The position numbers and the translations under genes are program-made. DNA of 34,379 nt from the IMG/VR virus record IMGVR_UViG_3300006879_000010, positions 1-34,379 of that record, one strand, 5' to 3'. This stretch comes from a virus (taxonomy: Duplodnaviria; Caudoviricetes). Within the stretch, counting starts at the first letter, position 1. The number at the start of each line of letters is the position of its first letter. Shown one piece after another: positions 21,170 to 33,758 of this stretch. A model generated the notes under the pieces. That model was not told where the DNA came from. It searched no databases and saw only the letters and a list, made by a program, of their open reading frames with translations.

Positions 21170-21946
21170 TTGAGAAAGATGGTAGGTACATTGTGGGATA
21201 GAATTACCCGCAATGACATTAATAGTAATTTCGAGCAATTATATAACGACGTCGGCAACATATCCGGCAAGATAACAGATGATATGTACGAAGAAATAAA
21301 GAATAATGTCGATCTCAATTGGGATGATCACGTCAATTCTGTTTCTGATCTTCCGAGTGATCCAACCGTAGGAACAACAATTCTCATAAGTAGTGATGGT
21401 GATGATTACGGAAAGGTTTTTCGTTATGATGGTTCCAACTGGAAAGAAATATTCCAAATGAATCCCGATGCAATATTTTCGTTAGAAGAACGCCTGCAAA
21501 AAGAAATAGATAAAAAGGAAACTCCTGAAGGTGCACAGGAAAAAGCGGATAAAGCGGAAACAAACGCTAAACAGACCGTGACTGATCTCGAACAGGAGAT
21601 TTACGGTGATGACAGCGATATTGTAAAGGTTGTGGAAAGCGGAAGCAATGCTAATGGTGAGTACATCCGTTATTCAGATGGGATGCAGTATTGCTGGGGA
21701 GACCTAAAATTGACGGCAAATGTTAGTCTTAATTCCTTATATCGCTCGGAATCCGAAGAATGGACATACCCTAAGGCATTTAAAGAAAAACCTTATTTCG
21801 TTTCTGCATCAGCACAGGCATACACACGATGGGCTGATATTGCAAGTTTCCCAAGTAAAGACAGTTGCTCCATAGTTCAATTTGCCACATCAGAAAAATC
21901 AAACTCGATAACCACGTTGACGTATGCCGTTGGTAGGTGGAAATAA
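21170..21946 (+). CDS. Tail fibre-like protein with gp53-like C-terminal domain
   Basis: RN.IN.NF..LY N-terminus, FRYDGSNW, KETPEGAQ.KAD, ESGSNANGEYIRYSDG.Q.CWG...AVGRWK. Confidence 0.75.
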   Translation: MRKMVGTLWDRITRNDINSNFEQLYNDVGNISGKITDDMYEEIKNNVDLNWDDHVNSVSDLPSDPTVGTTILISSDGDDYGKVFRYDGSNWKEIFQMNPDAIFSLEERLQKEIDKKETPEGAQEKADKAETNAKQTVTDLEQEIYGDDSDIVKVVESGSNANGEYIRYSDGMQYCWGDLKLTANVSLNSLYRSESEEWTYPKAFKEKPYFVSASAQAYTRWADIASFPSKDSCSIVQFATSEKSNSITTLTYAVGRWK

Positions 21947-22575
21947 TGATAAATATTCCGTATGATTTTATTGGCACTGTGGAATACGAAAGATACTCAG
22001 AGGTAATCGAAAGGATAAAAAAATTCGATAACCATTACACTATCGGGAAAGATCAAAGCGGCGAGTTTGATATGTATGTAATCCGTTTGGGGAATAAAAC
22101 CAAACCAACATTATTGATCACAGCCGGAATGCACGGTACTGAATGGCAGGGTACACAATACAGTTTAATCTTTATGGAACAATTAAGAGATAACCTTTTC
22201 CCGGATATTAGCTTCCGGGATTTTTTATTGAGTAATTTCCAGATTATTTATATTCCAGTGATGAATCCGTGGGGTTATGACAGGACTACTCCGCATGAGC
22301 CGAAATCAAGGAACAGAGGTAGAAGGAATTCAAATGATGTTGATTTAAACTCTGATTTCAAAAGTTTCACGCAAGCCGAATCGATCAACACTAAAAAAGT
22401 AATGGATGAATTTAAACCATTTGCTTACCTTGACTTACACCTTCAAACTCATGATATGGGAGGTAATGAAGATAATAACATTATCGTTGGTAATGGTCAG
22501 TACGAAACGGATTACGTCAAAGAAGAATGGATAGATTCTCTTGAAAATTACACCGGTCAATCCGTGACAAACTAG
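21946..22575 (+). CDS. M14 zinc carboxypeptidase domain, 5' part of an M14-Tal fusion cut by in-frame TAG
   Basis: AGMHGTE, PVMNPWG, RRN...DLN.DF, QAES, YLDLH; the same frame stays open after TAG 22573-22575. Confidence 0.82.
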   Translation: MINIPYDFIGTVEYERYSEVIERIKKFDNHYTIGKDQSGEFDMYVIRLGNKTKPTLLITAGMHGTEWQGTQYSLIFMEQLRDNLFPDISFRDFLLSNFQIIYIPVMNPWGYDRTTPHEPKSRNRGRRNSNDVDLNSDFKSFTQAESINTKKVMDEFKPFAYLDLHLQTHDMGGNEDNNIIVGNGQYETDYVKEEWIDSLENYTGQSVTN

Positions 22576-25643: not shown

Positions 25644-25942
25644 ATACGATATATCTATATCAAGGTGACACGGGAACAGGCGCGGATGCCATAATAGAAA
25701 ACAAGGACGGGCCAGTTGACTTAACTGATGCTGACGTTCTTTTTTTATTTGGTGATCATGTGATCTATCCGATCAAGCAAAAGGAAAAAGGGAATGTCCG
25801 GCTTGTGTTCGAGGATATGCATATGGAAGTAGCCTGCATATTCAATGCCTATTTTAGAGTGATTTGGAGCGACACAAGGAAAGAAACGTTCCCCGGCCCG
25901 CAGTTAGAACCAATTAAAGTACACATAAAGGAGATGAAATAA
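25640..25942 (+). CDS. BppU N-terminal-like baseplate adaptor
   Basis: QGDT...GPVDLTDA.V...G.V...AYFRV.W..TRKETFP. Confidence 0.75.
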   Translation: MNTIYLYQGDTGTGADAIIENKDGPVDLTDADVLFLFGDHVIYPIKQKEKGNVRLVFEDMHMEVACIFNAYFRVIWSDTRKETFPGPQLEPIKVHIKEMK

Positions 25943-26433
25943 TGGCAGATATAAACGATAAGTTAAAGCGCGCAATAGATGGGCCTGCACCACAACATAA
26001 GTTACCGGGAAGAGATGTATTTGAACCGAGTGAGGGTTCAGATGGCGCACTGCACACAAAAGTGACGGATGTAGAAGGGAATCCGATTGATCCTAGGGAT
26101 GTAAAACTACCGTCCAATTATCCCGATAGTGCAACATTAGCAGAATTACAGGCAATAAAGGAAGAAAACACCGAGATTAAGAAAACTCAGGGGAAAATAA
26201 TTGAAGCGCTGCAAGCTAACAACGAAAATCTAATGAACACGAATCAAGTATTAGAAAGTGTAATTAAGGATAATCGCATACAGTCCGATGCTCAAGTAAC
26301 TGGGAGTATAGTGGGGTACTCAACGGAAGATAAGACGGTTATTTTCCCCAATGCAAAACGCAACGACCAGTTTTTAGAATTGGATACAAAGGATGTTTAT
26401 TTTCATGATGGTAAGGGGTGGGTCAAATGGTGA
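25942..26433 (+). CDS. Tail fibre stem/adaptor; last ~43 aa come from the putative cassette
   Basis: Coiled coil, DAQVTGS junction, then FLELDT..VYF.DG..W. Confidence 0.7.
   Translation: MADINDKLKRAIDGPAPQHKLPGRDVFEPSEGSDGALHTKVTDVEGNPIDPRDVKLPSNYPDSATLAELQAIKEENTEIKKTQGKIIEALQANNENLMNTNQVLESVIKDNRIQSDAQVTGSIVGYSTEDKTVIFPNAKRNDQFLELDTKDVYFHDGKGWVKW
26285..26312. repeat. Putative recombination site, left
   Basis: CCGATGCTCAA-GTAACT-GGGAGTATAGT; related in direct orientation to 27291-27318. Confidence 0.55.
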
Positions 26434-27124
26434 TGTTTGACCCAATAGCCAATAAAAAAGCGGATGAATTGATAAGCAGGTATAACAAAGGAAAGCTTCC
26501 ACCGCAAATGGGGGCTCAGTTATGGCATCCAAGTCAGCTCATCGCATACGATGTGTTTGACCGAACAACAGAATATGCCGAGGGTTTTGGAATATCAGAT
26601 AGTGGGCAAAAGTGGGCAGTTTTACAAGGTTCAGGGCGAGTCAGAGCACCGGGCTTTGCAGAAACGACCTCCAGTGGTTCCATTCAAAAACTTGATATTG
26701 GAGCAACGCAAAAAGATTATAGTGTTTATGCATTAAGTAGATCGAACAGGGGAAGCGGCCGAAACCATGCGATCCTCATATCTTATGTAGACGATAGAAA
26801 CTATTTATACGGCGGTTATTATTCGGGTTCTATACGAGTAACGAAAGTTGTTGATGGAGTGGAAACAATGGTTGCATCCGGGGATTCCGGAATCTTTTCT
26901 GTTGGAAAAACTTGGGAATGGTTAATAGCTAGAGTTGTAAGTGTTTGGGAGCCATATGATTGCATCGTGGTCGGAGATGGTGTGGGAGGTGTGAGGTATA
27001 ATCTGAACAGTGATGTAGATGCATCTTTATTATTGCTAACCTTACTACTGGAATAATGCTTAATCATGGCGTATCTTACCTATCACGTTTTTTTGTTGTG
27101 GATGAAGGGGGCGATTGGTCATGA
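26427..27124 (+). pseudogene. Putative receptor-binding protein with a -1 frameshift near 27026
   Basis: Beta-rich ORF ends in LLLLTLLLE*; the -1 frame continues FIIANLTTGIML...DWS* to an ATGA overlap with the next gene. Confidence 0.6.
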
Positions 27125-27282
27125 GAGTAGCAATGACTACAGATGAACAGGGCGTGCGGAGACCCGATCTTCCTGACTACGCATCGTTTACGATTACAAT
27201 GTGGCATGATGATGGAAAGGTAACAGTGGAGCTTGATGAACGCACGGAGCTTAGAATGCTAATTGAGGAAATGAAACAATAA
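27121..27282 (+). CDS. 53-aa protein (MRVAMTTDEQG...), not in ORF track
   Basis: SD GAAGGGGG; last gene of the putative cassette. Confidence 0.6.
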   Translation: MRVAMTTDEQGVRRPDLPDYASFTITMWHDDGKVTVELDERTELRMLIEEMKQ

Positions 27283-27290
27283 AAATAATA

Positions 27291-27318
27291 ACCATACTCA
27301 ACTAACTGTGGAATAAAG
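27291..27318. repeat. Putative recombination site, right
   Basis: ACCATACTCAA-CTAACT-GTGGAATAAAG. Confidence 0.55.
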
Positions 27319-27324
27319 GTATAT

Positions 27325-27350
27325 AAAAAAAGAGCCTTTATTTAGGCTCT
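27325..27350 (-). terminator. Terminator at the HTH gene end, possibly bidirectional
   Basis: A7 followed by AGAGCCT-TTATTT-AGGCTCT. Confidence 0.65.
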
Positions 27351-27553
27351 AACTCCAGAATATCTGGTATATCACATTCAAGAACCTCACAAATTTTAGC
27401 GAGGTTATCAAGTGGCAATCGCTTAGTTTTGTTGTTGCACATTTCACTTATGGATGGGTGACGGATTCCGGTTAACCTGGATAATTCACGATGGGATATA
27501 TTTTTTTCGATTAATAAATTATTTAATTTTACAGTCACAATAATTTTGATCAT
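27338..27553 (-). CDS. XRE/Cro-C1 HTH regulator (YozG-like)
   Basis: LL.EKNIS.RELSRLTGIR.PSISEMCNN..KR..LDNL.KICEVL.C.I.DIL. Confidence 0.9.
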   Translation of the reverse strand: MIKIIVTVKLNNLLIEKNISHRELSRLTGIRHPSISEMCNNKTKRLPLDNLAKICEVLECDIPDILELEPK

Positions 27554-27577
27554 CTCCTTTTTTATTACTATACCATA

Positions 27578-27628
27578 TTGACACGCAAAACGTAACGTGT
27601 TATATTATTTTGTAACGCTAAGTGTAAC
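27578..27628 (+). promoter_or_regulatory. Sigma-A promoter of the recombinase with two operator-like 18-mers
   Basis: TTGACA-17-TATATT with extended TG; TGACACGCAAAACGTAAC (27579) and TGTAACGCTAAGTGTAAC (27611). Confidence 0.7.
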
Positions 27629-27650
27629 AAAGATATAGGAGATGATCATT

Positions 27651-28511
27651 ATGTTACTGTCTACTATTTGGGAAAGATATAAGAAAGAAAAGCAATTAAG
27701 TGGTCGCAACGTTCCTAGTACATTGGATCAATATGGTATGTATTCAAGACTTTTTATAGAGCATGTTGGAGATATGGAAATAGAAGATGTCACATTAAAA
27801 ATAATGAAGGAATATCTGCACATCCATACAGAAAGATTAAAACCTGGCAGTCTTGCTCAACGCATGAAATACTTTAGATCAATATGGAGATGGGCGCATG
27901 AGGAAGGCTATATTACTGAAAACCCTGCTGCTAGATTAGAAATTCCAGTAGAGGGAAAACGAGCGCCGAAATATGAAAGTGAAGAAACAATCGAAATGAT
28001 GAGGGTCGCCTGTAAGTCACCACTCGAAAATTCTATTTTAGAAGTGTTTTTTGCGACCGGTTGCCGGATAGCAGAGATACAAGGTGCTAATAAAAATATA
28101 GTTGACTGGACTGATCGGTCGATGCTTATCCTTGGGAAAAATGACAAAGAAAGAGACGTTTATTTTGGTGTTAGGTGTGCCATATGGCTGAAAAAATATT
28201 TAAACGCTAGGACAGATACCGATGTGGCTTTATTTGTCACAGAAAGAAAATTCAAATCTAATGGCGGACAATCTAGGAGACTATCAATAGCGCAATTAAG
28301 GGCGATAATTAAGCGGATCGCAAAACGTGCAGGTGTCGGAAATGTGTACCCACATAAATTGAGACATTCATTTGCTATGCATATGTTAAGAAATGGCGCA
28401 CCACTTGAAGCGATCCAGGTTTTCCTGGGACACGCGGATATTGCAACAACAAAAATTTATGCAGACTACGACACAGAAATGAAGAGACAATTATATAAAA
28501 AATATTTTTAA
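27651..28511 (+). CDS. XerC/D-like tyrosine recombinase
   Basis: SAM-like N-domain, NPA, ATGCRIAE, GKNDKER, HKLRHSFA, LGH..IATT.IY; all catalytic residues present, no arm-binding domain. Confidence 0.95.
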   Translation: MLLSTIWERYKKEKQLSGRNVPSTLDQYGMYSRLFIEHVGDMEIEDVTLKIMKEYLHIHTERLKPGSLAQRMKYFRSIWRWAHEEGYITENPAARLEIPVEGKRAPKYESEETIEMMRVACKSPLENSILEVFFATGCRIAEIQGANKNIVDWTDRSMLILGKNDKERDVYFGVRCAIWLKKYLNARTDTDVALFVTERKFKSNGGQSRRLSIAQLRAIIKRIAKRAGVGNVYPHKLRHSFAMHMLRNGAPLEAIQVFLGHADIATTKIYADYDTEMKRQLYKKYF

Positions 28512-28538
28512 GCATCCCACCACCGGGGGTGCTTTTTT
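28510..28538 (+). terminator. Rho-independent terminator
   Basis: AAGCATCCC-loop-GGGGTGCTT-TTTT. Confidence 0.8.
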
Positions 28539-32083: not shown

Positions 32084-33226
32084 ATGCTTCTCGAATTCGG
32101 AGTGTGGGCAGGTTCAGCATATTTATTACACCGTTCATTGTTCGGTCCTGTCAGCGATCAAAAGAAAATAAAAAAGACATTTGAAAATGTTAAATTTGGT
32201 TTTGGTGATAAATTTCCGCAGCATTCATGGACAAATAAAACAGATCACTACACTATATACGGTTACAATTTGCCATACGGATTAATGGATAATCCAAAGC
32301 TGGAACTGATTCTTGAAAAAACATTGAATAAACCTGTAGCTGTGGAAATGGATAATCAATTGAAAATTAGAGTATATAAGGAGGATTTAAAAATGAGATA
32401 TGATTATGATTTTAGTCGTAATTATTCGGGTGGATGGACTGCACCCATTGGTAAAACATTGAATGGAATAGCGATGCACGATTTTGATAAAATACCACAC
32501 ATGACAATTGCCGGTATGACCAGGCAAGGGAAAACAGTACTGCTTAAACTTATTATGACCCACTTAATATCATATCATGCAGATGATGTGGAGTTTTATA
32601 TTATTGATTTAAAAGGCGGCCTGGAATTTGATCAGTATAGAAATATAAAACAAGTTAAGCGAGTAGCAAGTGATGTGAACGAAGCGTATAAACTGCTCAC
32701 AGACGTTTCAGAGCAGATCAAAACAGATATGTCACACTTTAAACAGAATGGTTACACGAACATTTTAAATACTGATATTAAGAAACGTAAATTCATTATT
32801 ACAGATGAAGGCGCGGAACTTGCTCCTGCCACTCACCAAACTAAAGAACAGAAAGATATGTTTAAGTTTTGCCAACATACGCTATCAGAAATTGCACGTG
32901 TTGCTGGCGCACTTGGTTACAGGAATATATTTTGCACTCAATATCCCACATCCGACACATTACCTCGACAAATTAAACAAAATAGCGATGCAAAGATAAG
33001 TTTTCGTTTACCGACCGAAGTAGCTTCTCGTGTGGCCATTGATGAACAAGGTGCGGAAACATTAGAAAATGCAGGTAGAGCCATTTATCGAACGCATGAA
33101 AGGCAGATTATACAAGTTCCTTATATATCTGATGAAGATATGAAAGAACATTTAAAGGAGTGGGAGCATGAACCAACAACAGAAAAAAATACAGCGACAA
33201 GAACAGATATTATCGAGATTGGATGA
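32084..33226 (+). CDS. FtsK/SpoIIIE-family ATPase
   Basis: PHMTIAGMTRQGKT, IIDLKGG, IITDE, CTQYP, GAETL..AGRAI. Confidence 0.93.
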   Translation: MLLEFGVWAGSAYLLHRSLFGPVSDQKKIKKTFENVKFGFGDKFPQHSWTNKTDHYTIYGYNLPYGLMDNPKLELILEKTLNKPVAVEMDNQLKIRVYKEDLKMRYDYDFSRNYSGGWTAPIGKTLNGIAMHDFDKIPHMTIAGMTRQGKTVLLKLIMTHLISYHADDVEFYIIDLKGGLEFDQYRNIKQVKRVASDVNEAYKLLTDVSEQIKTDMSHFKQNGYTNILNTDIKKRKFIITDEGAELAPATHQTKEQKDMFKFCQHTLSEIARVAGALGYRNIFCTQYPTSDTLPRQIKQNSDAKISFRLPTEVASRVAIDEQGAETLENAGRAIYRTHERQIIQVPYISDEDMKEHLKEWEHEPTTEKNTATRTDIIEIG

Positions 33227-33758
33227 CTTAGGTTATGCAACAAGGAAGCAGGTGCAGGTAATCGAAAGTTTGGGCGGGGATCGTAATGCCCACAGGATAT
33301 TGCACGAAATGGAAAAAGATAAACTAATATCTTCGGTGCGGCGGGAGCAGAAAATATATTTTTTATCTGGATCGGGTAAAAATATTATTGGTAGCACAAA
33401 AGAATTAAAACAGTCTCACATTGACCATACCCTTATGAAGAATGATATGTATATTAAGTTGGGTATGCCTAAAAGTTGGCAAACAGAAGTGCCGGTCAAA
33501 CTTAATGATCAAGAAAAGTATTTGATTTCTGATGCAATGTTTAATGTCGATAATAAAGTAAGCTTTATAGAGATAGATAACCTGCAAGCAATGCAAACTA
33601 ATGATGATAAAATTTTGAAGTACGGAAAGTTATTTAAGGCTATGTTTCGGCAGTATAAGGAACATCCGACATTAATATGGTACACATTGTCAGATGTGCG
33701 GAAAAAGAAGTTAGAAGAAGCGTGTAATAAGCATGGAATTAAATTTAAAATATATTAG
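33168..33758 (+). CDS. Replication-relaxation family protein (wHTH plus PD-(D/E)XK)
   Basis: ATRKQ, RNA.RIL, HTLM.ND.Y, ISDA.F, FIEID; overlaps FtsK. Confidence 0.85.
   Translation: MNQQQKKIQRQEQILSRLDDLGYATRKQVQVIESLGGDRNAHRILHEMEKDKLISSVRREQKIYFLSGSGKNIIGSTKELKQSHIDHTLMKNDMYIKLGMPKSWQTEVPVKLNDQEKYLISDAMFNVDNKVSFIEIDNLQAMQTNDDKILKYGKLFKAMFRQYKEHPTLIWYTLSDVRKKKLEEACNKHGIKFKIY

Follow-up and report, generated by a model that had tools for sequence, protein, structure and literature searches.

An apparently undescribed in-frame cassette-exchange site at the probable tail tip of Bacillota phages

The DNA analyzed here, hereafter the window, is the whole 34.4-kb virus record IMGVR_UViG_3300006879_000010 from IMG/VR (34,379 nt, Caudoviricetes), and the element in question is a 1006-bp module lying between two related sites in direct orientation, the first of which is inside the gene of a probable fibre stalk protein, with genes for an XRE-type regulator and a Xer-like tyrosine recombinase directly behind the second. 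Judged from sequence comparison, we hold with moderate confidence that this module is exchanged at the in-frame site by a recombinase of the family encoded next to it, likely by excision and re-insertion, and that this exchange would give a predicted trimeric stalk a new tip and a new, likely receptor-binding, partner, and so likely change the host range. The site is a widespread and real cassette-exchange site for the probable tail tip in Bacillota phages, and it is apparently undescribed.

A preliminary description of the window had noticed two related 28-mers at 26285 and 27291, 1006 bp apart on the same strand, cassette-internal arms forming an inverted repeat (8 of 9 positions), and a predicted empty site reading two further codons and then a stop. 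These points held, and the sites do enclose the last 43 codons of the open reading frame (ORF) 25942-26433, the ORF starting at 26427 and a 53-aa ORF (27121-27282). What did not hold was the placement of arms and spacers. The description had centred an 11-6-11 site on (G/C)TAACT, with spacers differing at one base; in that register the arm symmetry was 2.18 of 10, compared to 2.49 in shuffled sequences, and the actual spacers are 6 and 7 nt long and unlike in sequence too. That register was rejected; the TACTC/GAGTA symmetry of phage in-frame sites is real in their sequence and is missing from chromosomal sites. The correct register lies 6 nt further to the right, with the dyad centre after ..TAAC, and the register after AAC gave an arm symmetry of 5.42 of 10 compared to 3.04 in shuffles (154 sites, seeded on a neutral centre only).

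In this register, site 1 (26289..26318, + strand) is in frame and consists of a left arm (26289-26300), a 6-nt spacer (26301-26306) that ends in AG and is of the 'start' type, and a right arm (26307-26318), and its crossover would fall at 26300/26301. Site 2 (27295..27325, + strand) is non-coding and in direct orientation, with a left arm at 27295-27306, a 7-nt spacer at 27307-27313 and a right arm at 27314-27325. As a bare repeat, the pair is no better than chance in the window: the 12-nt core was matched better at two other places (1 mismatch compared to 2), site 2 was outside the ten best matches to the 28-mer, and a general repeat search did not place the pair among the 20 largest repeat families. 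A two-arm site model was trained on 306 chromosomal sites, none of them from the phage loci analyzed here, and run over all window positions on both strands. It ranked sites 1 and 2 first (17.3) and second (13.0), and no third site was found, the next score being 10.5. A score of 17.3 was seen 0.06 times per window in 300 shuffles, and a same-strand pair scoring at least 13 within 1.5 kb appeared in 6 of the 300.

The preliminary description had proposed looking for identity breaks at the site in relatives, and these were found, different modules being joined in frame behind near-identical constant parts. All 31 homologues of the 163-aa fusion protein carry a (Q/R)(L/V)TG-like motif (a loose pattern) and diverge beyond it. 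Two groups of five contig-derived homologues each showed 68-88% and 86-100% identity before the motif (5-residue blocks), and 2-18%, in round terms about 5-10%, from five residues past it. No C-part similarity was detectable in 66 of 72 pairs, which are not independent of each other, with N-parts at least 85% identical, and 68 proteins (with locus L184 left out) fell into 18 N families and 45 C families. For example, homologue P0121 agrees with the window protein at all but 2 of the first 122 residues, and a different tail follows. P0121 is a protein without a contig from a catalogue that we take to be a protein-level assembly, and may be chimeric, and the counts were redone on contig-derived proteins only. 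Conversely, P0140, which has an unrelated N-terminus, ends in a counterpart of the window protein's 43-aa tail (82% identity over 28 aa).

The breaks were also seen in DNA. Four inter-locus matches, L190/L194 (-159..+15), L087/L088 (-200..+3), L104/L199 (-12..+317) and L083/L194 (-26..+214), start or stop at the site, within 26 nt of it. L190 and L194 are two prophages of genome G236 whose sequences agree fully from 63 nt left of the crossover to 15 nt right of it; after that they are unrelated. The DNA motif is kept in the codons as well, with xTA, GGG and AGT each present in 6 of the 7 site-reaching loci found by protein N-terminus, window included. Tandem cassettes, which the preliminary description had also suggested looking for, are present in L112 and L187: in L112 (3262-6832), an in-frame site is found in each of two genes, and a pair of paralogous tail genes of the FGE-sulfatase fold precedes the end site, while L187 has two end sites around a small gene. 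The G236 prophage loci L209 and L210 are 91% identical over the 175 nt before the in-frame site and have different modules beyond.

The sites are tied to the recombinase family. Among 40 viral loci of this family, a site lies within 4 kb upstream of the recombinase in 24 and downstream in none, compared to one of 15 loci with distant recombinases; the 40 and 15 loci were drawn from 80, omitting duplicates, partial matches and loci with little upstream DNA. We obtained 33 phage or prophage loci with an in-frame site, about half of them found via the recombinase, after removing 5 of 38 rows (L184, two rows of L202, L089 and L094) in which the site lies deep in a long or repetitive ORF or has a negative right-arm score. 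The in-frame spacer was called as 6 nt in 31 of the 33, mostly TGGGAG (14) or GGGGAG (8). Where at least 1.5 kb of downstream sequence was available (27 loci), a direct non-coding second site was found in 20, a recombinase in 16, and both in 10. End spacers are 7 or 8 nt long in 20 of 22 cases, and in 14 of 22 the empty allele is predicted to reach a stop codon within 5 codons, a count made with no control run. No inverted spare module was found: an inverted start-type site occurred in none of the 27 loci, and the window has no third site.

Sites of the same family were also found in bacterial genomes. Arrays of a motif that shares the left half of the site were seen around relatives of the recombinase on genome contigs (79 loci, 44-49% identity), with at least three sites in 57 of the 79 and with 575 typed sites on the other strand than the enzyme, compared to 28 on its own. 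Sites with AG-ending spacers precede genes and those with GC-ending spacers follow them, the median distance being 668 nt from AG to GC and 61 nt from GC to AG (150 each), besides 67 AG-AG and 94 GC-GC steps. In the short GC to AG intervals lie hairpins or, in one interval of each array, the recombinase in reversed orientation, and the layout recurs on a Sporosarcina plasmid. The arrays L002-L080 (e.g. L075, L053 and L048) and the plasmid locus L207 carry single-gene cassettes for GNAT, NUDIX, methyltransferase and membrane proteins, and the hairpin modules between alternating AG- and GC-type sites measure 50-105 nt. The phage sites are linked to these host arrays by both enzyme family and site family.

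These chromosomal sites allowed the crossover to be mapped, from pairs that have just one distant flank in common. In 121 left-sharing pairs, positions -10 to -1 were kept, with 82-100% agreement through the left arm and 42% at +1, while in 42 right-sharing pairs the left arm was at random level and agreement at +1 was 83%. The spacer was identical in 48% of right-sharing, 11% of left-sharing and 9% of random pairs. On this comparative evidence, the crossover is placed at AAC/N, between -1 and +1; in the arrays, spacer and right arm go with what lies downstream, and the left arm goes with what lies upstream.

A mechanism can be proposed on this basis. The enzyme would bind both arms (consensus TTCAACTAAC / GTTAGTTGAA), and strand exchange would take place at the left edge of the spacer, right after ..TAAC (AAC/N), without a spacer match, and therefore the 6-nt spacer in the gene could recombine with an unlike one of 7-8 nt at the end. 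The junction would be resolved by replication or by a second, mismatch-tolerant exchange. The excised circle would join 27306 to 26301 and carry the 6-nt spacer, which would keep the frame open through the right arm (conserved G-S-N/I-V-E); in the empty allele, with its 7-nt spacer, a stop would come after two codons. As the phage stores no spare, new modules would come from other genomes, supplied by co-resident prophages or co-infecting phages, with the enzyme often acting in trans.

Several observations weigh against excision and re-insertion by the neighbouring enzyme. Tyrosine recombinases seldom recombine unlike spacers, and the crossover was mapped on chromosomal, not phage, sites. None of the 31 homologues stops at the site (the shortest tail has 20 aa), so that no empty allele was found among them, and in the contigs of one run, which drop rare variants, a single contig spans both sites, with neither a joint there nor a circle. 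Seven of the 27 loci had no second site at the threshold used. Many phages carry both sites without an adjoining recombinase, and of 13 loci found by the site or the constant protein (at least 1.5 kb downstream) only 3 have one; at E 1e-60, a family recombinase was present elsewhere in 2 of 5 host genomes tested, while the other three, including G236, which holds L190 and L194, had none. In the window itself, the left and right halves of site 2 score 14.2 and -1.2 in the chromosomal model, its right arm agrees at 6 of 11 positions with the consensus of 17 other terminal sites (range 3-11), and its spacer ends in AA while those 17 end in TC or GC, which puts site 2 at the degenerate end of the site family. 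Because of this degenerate right half and because the recombinase stands on a long branch (0.99), the window copy of the system may be inactive.

The main rival is an exchange of like with like, in which the same enzyme recombines in-frame site with in-frame site between two co-resident phage genomes, and then end site with end site or by ordinary homology, while the unlike spacers block a lethal excision. The nearly uniform in-frame spacers, facing unlike end spacers, would follow naturally from this, as would the lack of an empty allele and the pattern of the two G236 prophages, which diverge only beyond 15 nt right of the crossover. We judge this account unlikely, as left-sharing array pairs have the same spacer hardly more often than random pairs (11% compared to 9%), and spacer identity seemingly is therefore not required; the end spacers also vary between phages, and the tandem units of L112, L187 and L120 fit insertion better. 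Taking both routes together, we are quite confident that the exchange is driven by a recombinase.

Less probable still is ordinary mosaicism, in which homology or microhomology at a conserved linker between domains (TQLTGS) lets modules recombine, with the sites being relics and the adjoining recombinase idle here. Such a view would account for the 10 of 13 site-found loci that have no adjoining recombinase, for the degenerate site 2 and for the mosaic stalk regions upstream of the site in L087/L088 and L190/L194. It leaves out that non-coding end sites show the DNA motif again in 20 of 27 loci, as do chromosomal arrays, that codon choice is fixed at the site, and that the sites are tied to the recombinase family (24 of 40 compared to 1 of 15), and we therefore consider it improbable. 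That the recombinase is the phage integrase or a dimer resolvase, one site being attP or a resolution site and its in-frame position incidental, is very improbable, for although a scan of 41 window proteins turned up no other integrase (on a probably incomplete contig), FtsK and Replic_Relax genes are present in the record, and the plasmid prophage B83 reportedly carries Xer recombinases (PMC11526630, in the part accessible), the chromosomal prophages L001, L208, L209 and L210 keep the sites within an intact tail region, so that the sites do not serve as attP, and a resolution site would leave the in-frame module swaps unexplained.

The protein that receives the module is encoded after the Dit and Tal genes. 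Its constant N-terminal part, residues 1-120 (25942..26300, + strand), which 31 homologues have in common, is predicted to form a small head and a coiled coil in a homotrimer, and is probably a fibre stalk. A three-copy model of the 163-aa protein gave a trimer score of 0.62, compared to 0.01 for the best control, with interface residues 2-108 in the constant part, at least 79% agreement of contacts between runs and pLDDT of at least 77; the mark used for this score, roughly applicable here, is one that 20 of 30 solved homo-pairs attain, as does 1 of 23 single chains. The cassette-borne C-terminal module of 43 aa (26301..26433, + strand) is the variable part. Neither Pfam nor PHROG has a family for the fusion protein, the lectin-like protein or the 53-aa protein of the window. 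In homologue P0141, the long variable domain (pLDDT 61.9) had the N-domain of XepA as its best structural match (Z 11.5, rmsd 2.2, 102 residues aligned; next match 10.3) and reached Z 8.2 with YomS. In the Atlas, P0127 lies near SPbeta YouA and XepA, and Foldseek with the low-confidence P0141 model returned generic jelly-roll matches only. Because the P0141 domain resembles XepA, which is discussed as lysis- or capsid-associated in the accessible part of PMC6834076, it is possible that the fusion protein belongs to the head or neck rather than the tail. In L089/L101 (5646-7513), the gene with the in-frame site lies behind what by eye is an apparent capsid gene and ahead of a LamG-like gene, which suggests a head or neck appendage version. 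Both points count against a role at the tail tip.

The second gene of the module (26427..27124, + strand) encodes a ConA-like beta-sandwich protein, and we think it probable that it is a receptor-binding protein. The full-length form, P0154, has 232 aa and differs from the window at one residue over the first 201; it reads through to an ATGA overlap with the 53-aa gene, whereas in the window copy one nucleotide is lost near 27029 and the frame ends at 212 aa. In a contig of run X1, perhaps the source of the window itself, the base is there, and the loss is either an assembly error or a lesion. The AlphaFold model of P0154 (pLDDT 73.7) is a ConA-like beta-sandwich, thus a carbohydrate-binding fold, a shared fold that alone gives no function. 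Foldseek matched it to CBM66 (TM 0.70 by target), to lectin domains and, with E 4e-8 and weaker for the matches that carry names, to fibre and minor proteins of phage tails. Matches to toxin domains in the structure searches concern common lectin and jelly-roll folds at 9-14% identity, and were rejected as an indication of a toxin.

The last gene of the module (27121..27282, + strand; 53 aa) has one further homologue, at 79% identity. Small acidic genes close most cassettes of this kind, and last genes of similar size occur in L083-type loci. Cargo in other phage loci includes GDPD, the FGE-sulfatase (C-type lectin) fold, LamG, and PHROG tail and tail-fibre families. A 360-aa ORF at L139:3978-5061, within the cassette behind a tail gene of the FGE-sulfatase type, looks by eye like a reverse transcriptase and is possibly a diversity-generating retroelement carried as cargo. 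In L104 (4922-6158), a reversed gene for a 411-aa membrane protein between tail cargo and end site is a candidate for a receptor-modifying moron.

The regulator and recombinase genes follow the cassette directly, as had been described. A terminator-like hairpin (27331..27350, strand not assigned; scored on the - strand, with its A-run on the + side) stands between the cassette and the gene for the XRE/Cro-type helix-turn-helix regulator (27338..27553, - strand; PF13443, E 2.6e-20), which is divergent from the recombinase gene. XRE or other small regulators occupy the equivalent place in L104, L139, L001 and L091. Ahead of the recombinase is a strong sigma-A-type promoter match (27578..27606, + strand; 11 of 12 with a TG motif), and it alone stands out among 11 matches in the region, compared to 9.6 in shuffles. 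The Xer-like tyrosine recombinase (27642..28511, + strand) has a SAM-like and a catalytic domain (PF00589), and its catalytic set is complete (RKHRHY: R142, K166, H238, R241, H264 and Y273). It scored 166.5 against the XerC equivalog cut-off of 335.15 and 156.6 against the XerD cut-off of 329.6, thus falling below both, and it is 57-60% identical to Halobacillus prophage enzymes that themselves stand behind an in-frame site. In a quick tree of 65 rows, with 16 of the 79 genome-contig enzymes and an untested root, it groups with those Halobacillus enzymes (97), and a single clade (97) among phage enzymes takes in 15 array enzymes, which is a hint only. At the catalytic tyrosine of many recombinases of the family, the YAQLSG codons resemble the site on the + strand (L027:4832, L053:10794, L058:10797, L077:10740 and others), and this resemblance is lost in the window enzyme.

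Compared to known systems, which are described here from the accessible parts of the sources cited, the closest is the Rin shufflon of Bifidobacterium (PMC6109161) and Eggerthella (PMC8778435) prophages. Both systems have a XerD-like tyrosine recombinase without an arm domain beside the gene of a receptor-binding protein with constant N- and variable C-terminus, and one short site with CTAAC in the gene and another in direct orientation right behind it. Rin, in contrast, keeps several spare C-termini and 2-3 inverted sites and works by inversion, whereas no inverted spare occurs in the 27 loci, and the modules here bring whole extra genes, a two-armed dyad, typed spacers and a diversity that lies between genomes. 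An invertase switch of the Rin, Gin, Cin or Min type was accordingly rejected; the in-gene site and adjoining recombinase are present, but inverted sites with stored C-termini were not found (0 of 27). The Int1 tail-fibre switch of phiCh1/phiH1 (PMC6210493) and Mu Gin, P1 Cin and p15B Min (as given in PMC6109161) likewise change a tail-fibre C-terminus by a recombinase, but all of them invert a segment between at least two stored alternatives.

The window sites, with inverted arms and spacers of 6-7 nt, agree with the general form of a tyrosine recombinase site, two inverted arms around a 6-8 bp spacer (PMC4792948). This form is shared with dif, and the domain layout and size of the enzyme with XerC/D; the window system differs in a single enzyme, below the cut-offs, in unlike partner spacers, and in sites that flank cargo rather than serve dimer resolution. 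The integron-like swap of host-range modules put forward in the preliminary description stood in part, in that recombinase-linked sites, in-frame fusions of different modules and carbohydrate-binding-like cargo were found, but neither IntI nor attC. The IntI model TIGR02249 gave 55 bits compared to a cut-off of 265 and matched only residues 184-274, and there is no I2 insertion, as the XerC model aligns residues 26-288 in one stretch and 96 residues separate the box I Arg from HxxR. Hairpins of the attC kind were rejected on both strands of both sites (z -0.23 to +0.54). With integrons (IntI, attI and attC as described in PMC4792948), the system shares direct-repeat cassettes, the newest unit behind a fixed platform element, a crossover next to AAC/GTT, probably no need for a matching core, and, in chromosomes, single-gene cassettes arrayed on the strand opposite to the recombinase. 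It differs in sites of 28-30 bp without a stable hairpin, an enzyme far below the IntI cut-off and similar to IntI in the C-terminal part only, a platform element that is a reading frame and not a promoter, and two alternating spacer types. Direct-repeat cassettes varying between genomes are found in the chromosomal relatives, while the phages usually have one unit (at least two in L112 and L187).

XepA of PBSX and YomS of SPbeta, both from B. subtilis, resemble the long variable domain of a homologue in their jelly-roll fold and share the position between tail and lysis genes, but they are pentamers with no cassette described in the accessible part of PMC6834076, and the variable part in the window is a 43-aa module of another type. 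The bcr repeats of B. cereus, which are 100-400 bp long and TTTAT-linked (PMC6542083, accessible part), were judged different from the window sites by their size as described. No description of the site or system was found in the literature searched, which did not extend to subscription papers and bioRxiv supplements.

The sample originates from soil, and the phage is of Bacillaceae type. The named proteins closest to those of the window are from Halobacillus and Virgibacillus, and the host is therefore probably a member of the Bacillaceae. The gene order is terminase, portal, Clp protease, capsid, tape measure, Dit, Tal, cassette region, holin, amidase, FtsK and Replic_Relax. The record shows no terminal repeat and may therefore be incomplete. 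A tail-fibre-like gene and a gene for an M14 zinc carboxypeptidase are placed between Dit and Tal (21170-22575), and the FtsK/SpoIIIE and Replic_Relax pair (32084-33758) is typical of Bacillus temperate phages, in a record without a second integrase. No cultured model phage was found, because the collection of cultured phages had no match for the 163-aa protein and matched the recombinase at no more than 38%. Single-sequence protein scans of viral contigs found nothing, and relatives surfaced with alignment queries.

A wider reading, which we put forward tentatively and regard as possible rather than probable, is that Bacillota phages and their hosts share one undescribed integron-like platform. 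Here, a Xer-like recombinase, which could also act in trans from the host or a helper, would join sites with unlike spacers at a single edge and plug foreign receptor-binding modules from a cross-genome pool in frame onto a fixed stalk, the spacer length (6 or 7 nt) setting open frame or stop, and the Bacillaceae arrays would derive from one branch of phage enzymes. If true, this would be a tangible example of an integron-like system that arose from viruses. The phage locus would be a minimal two-site substrate for unlike-spacer recombination by an enzyme without the IntI domain, which bears on the origins of integrons, and Gram-positive genetics could make good use of a 30-bp site for in-frame domain fusion. 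The tail switches described so far work by inversion of stored alternatives, whereas here whole receptor-binding modules are apparently swapped between genomes at a fixed in-frame joint, which would explain the sharp mosaicism of tails in Bacillota phages as a programmed process.

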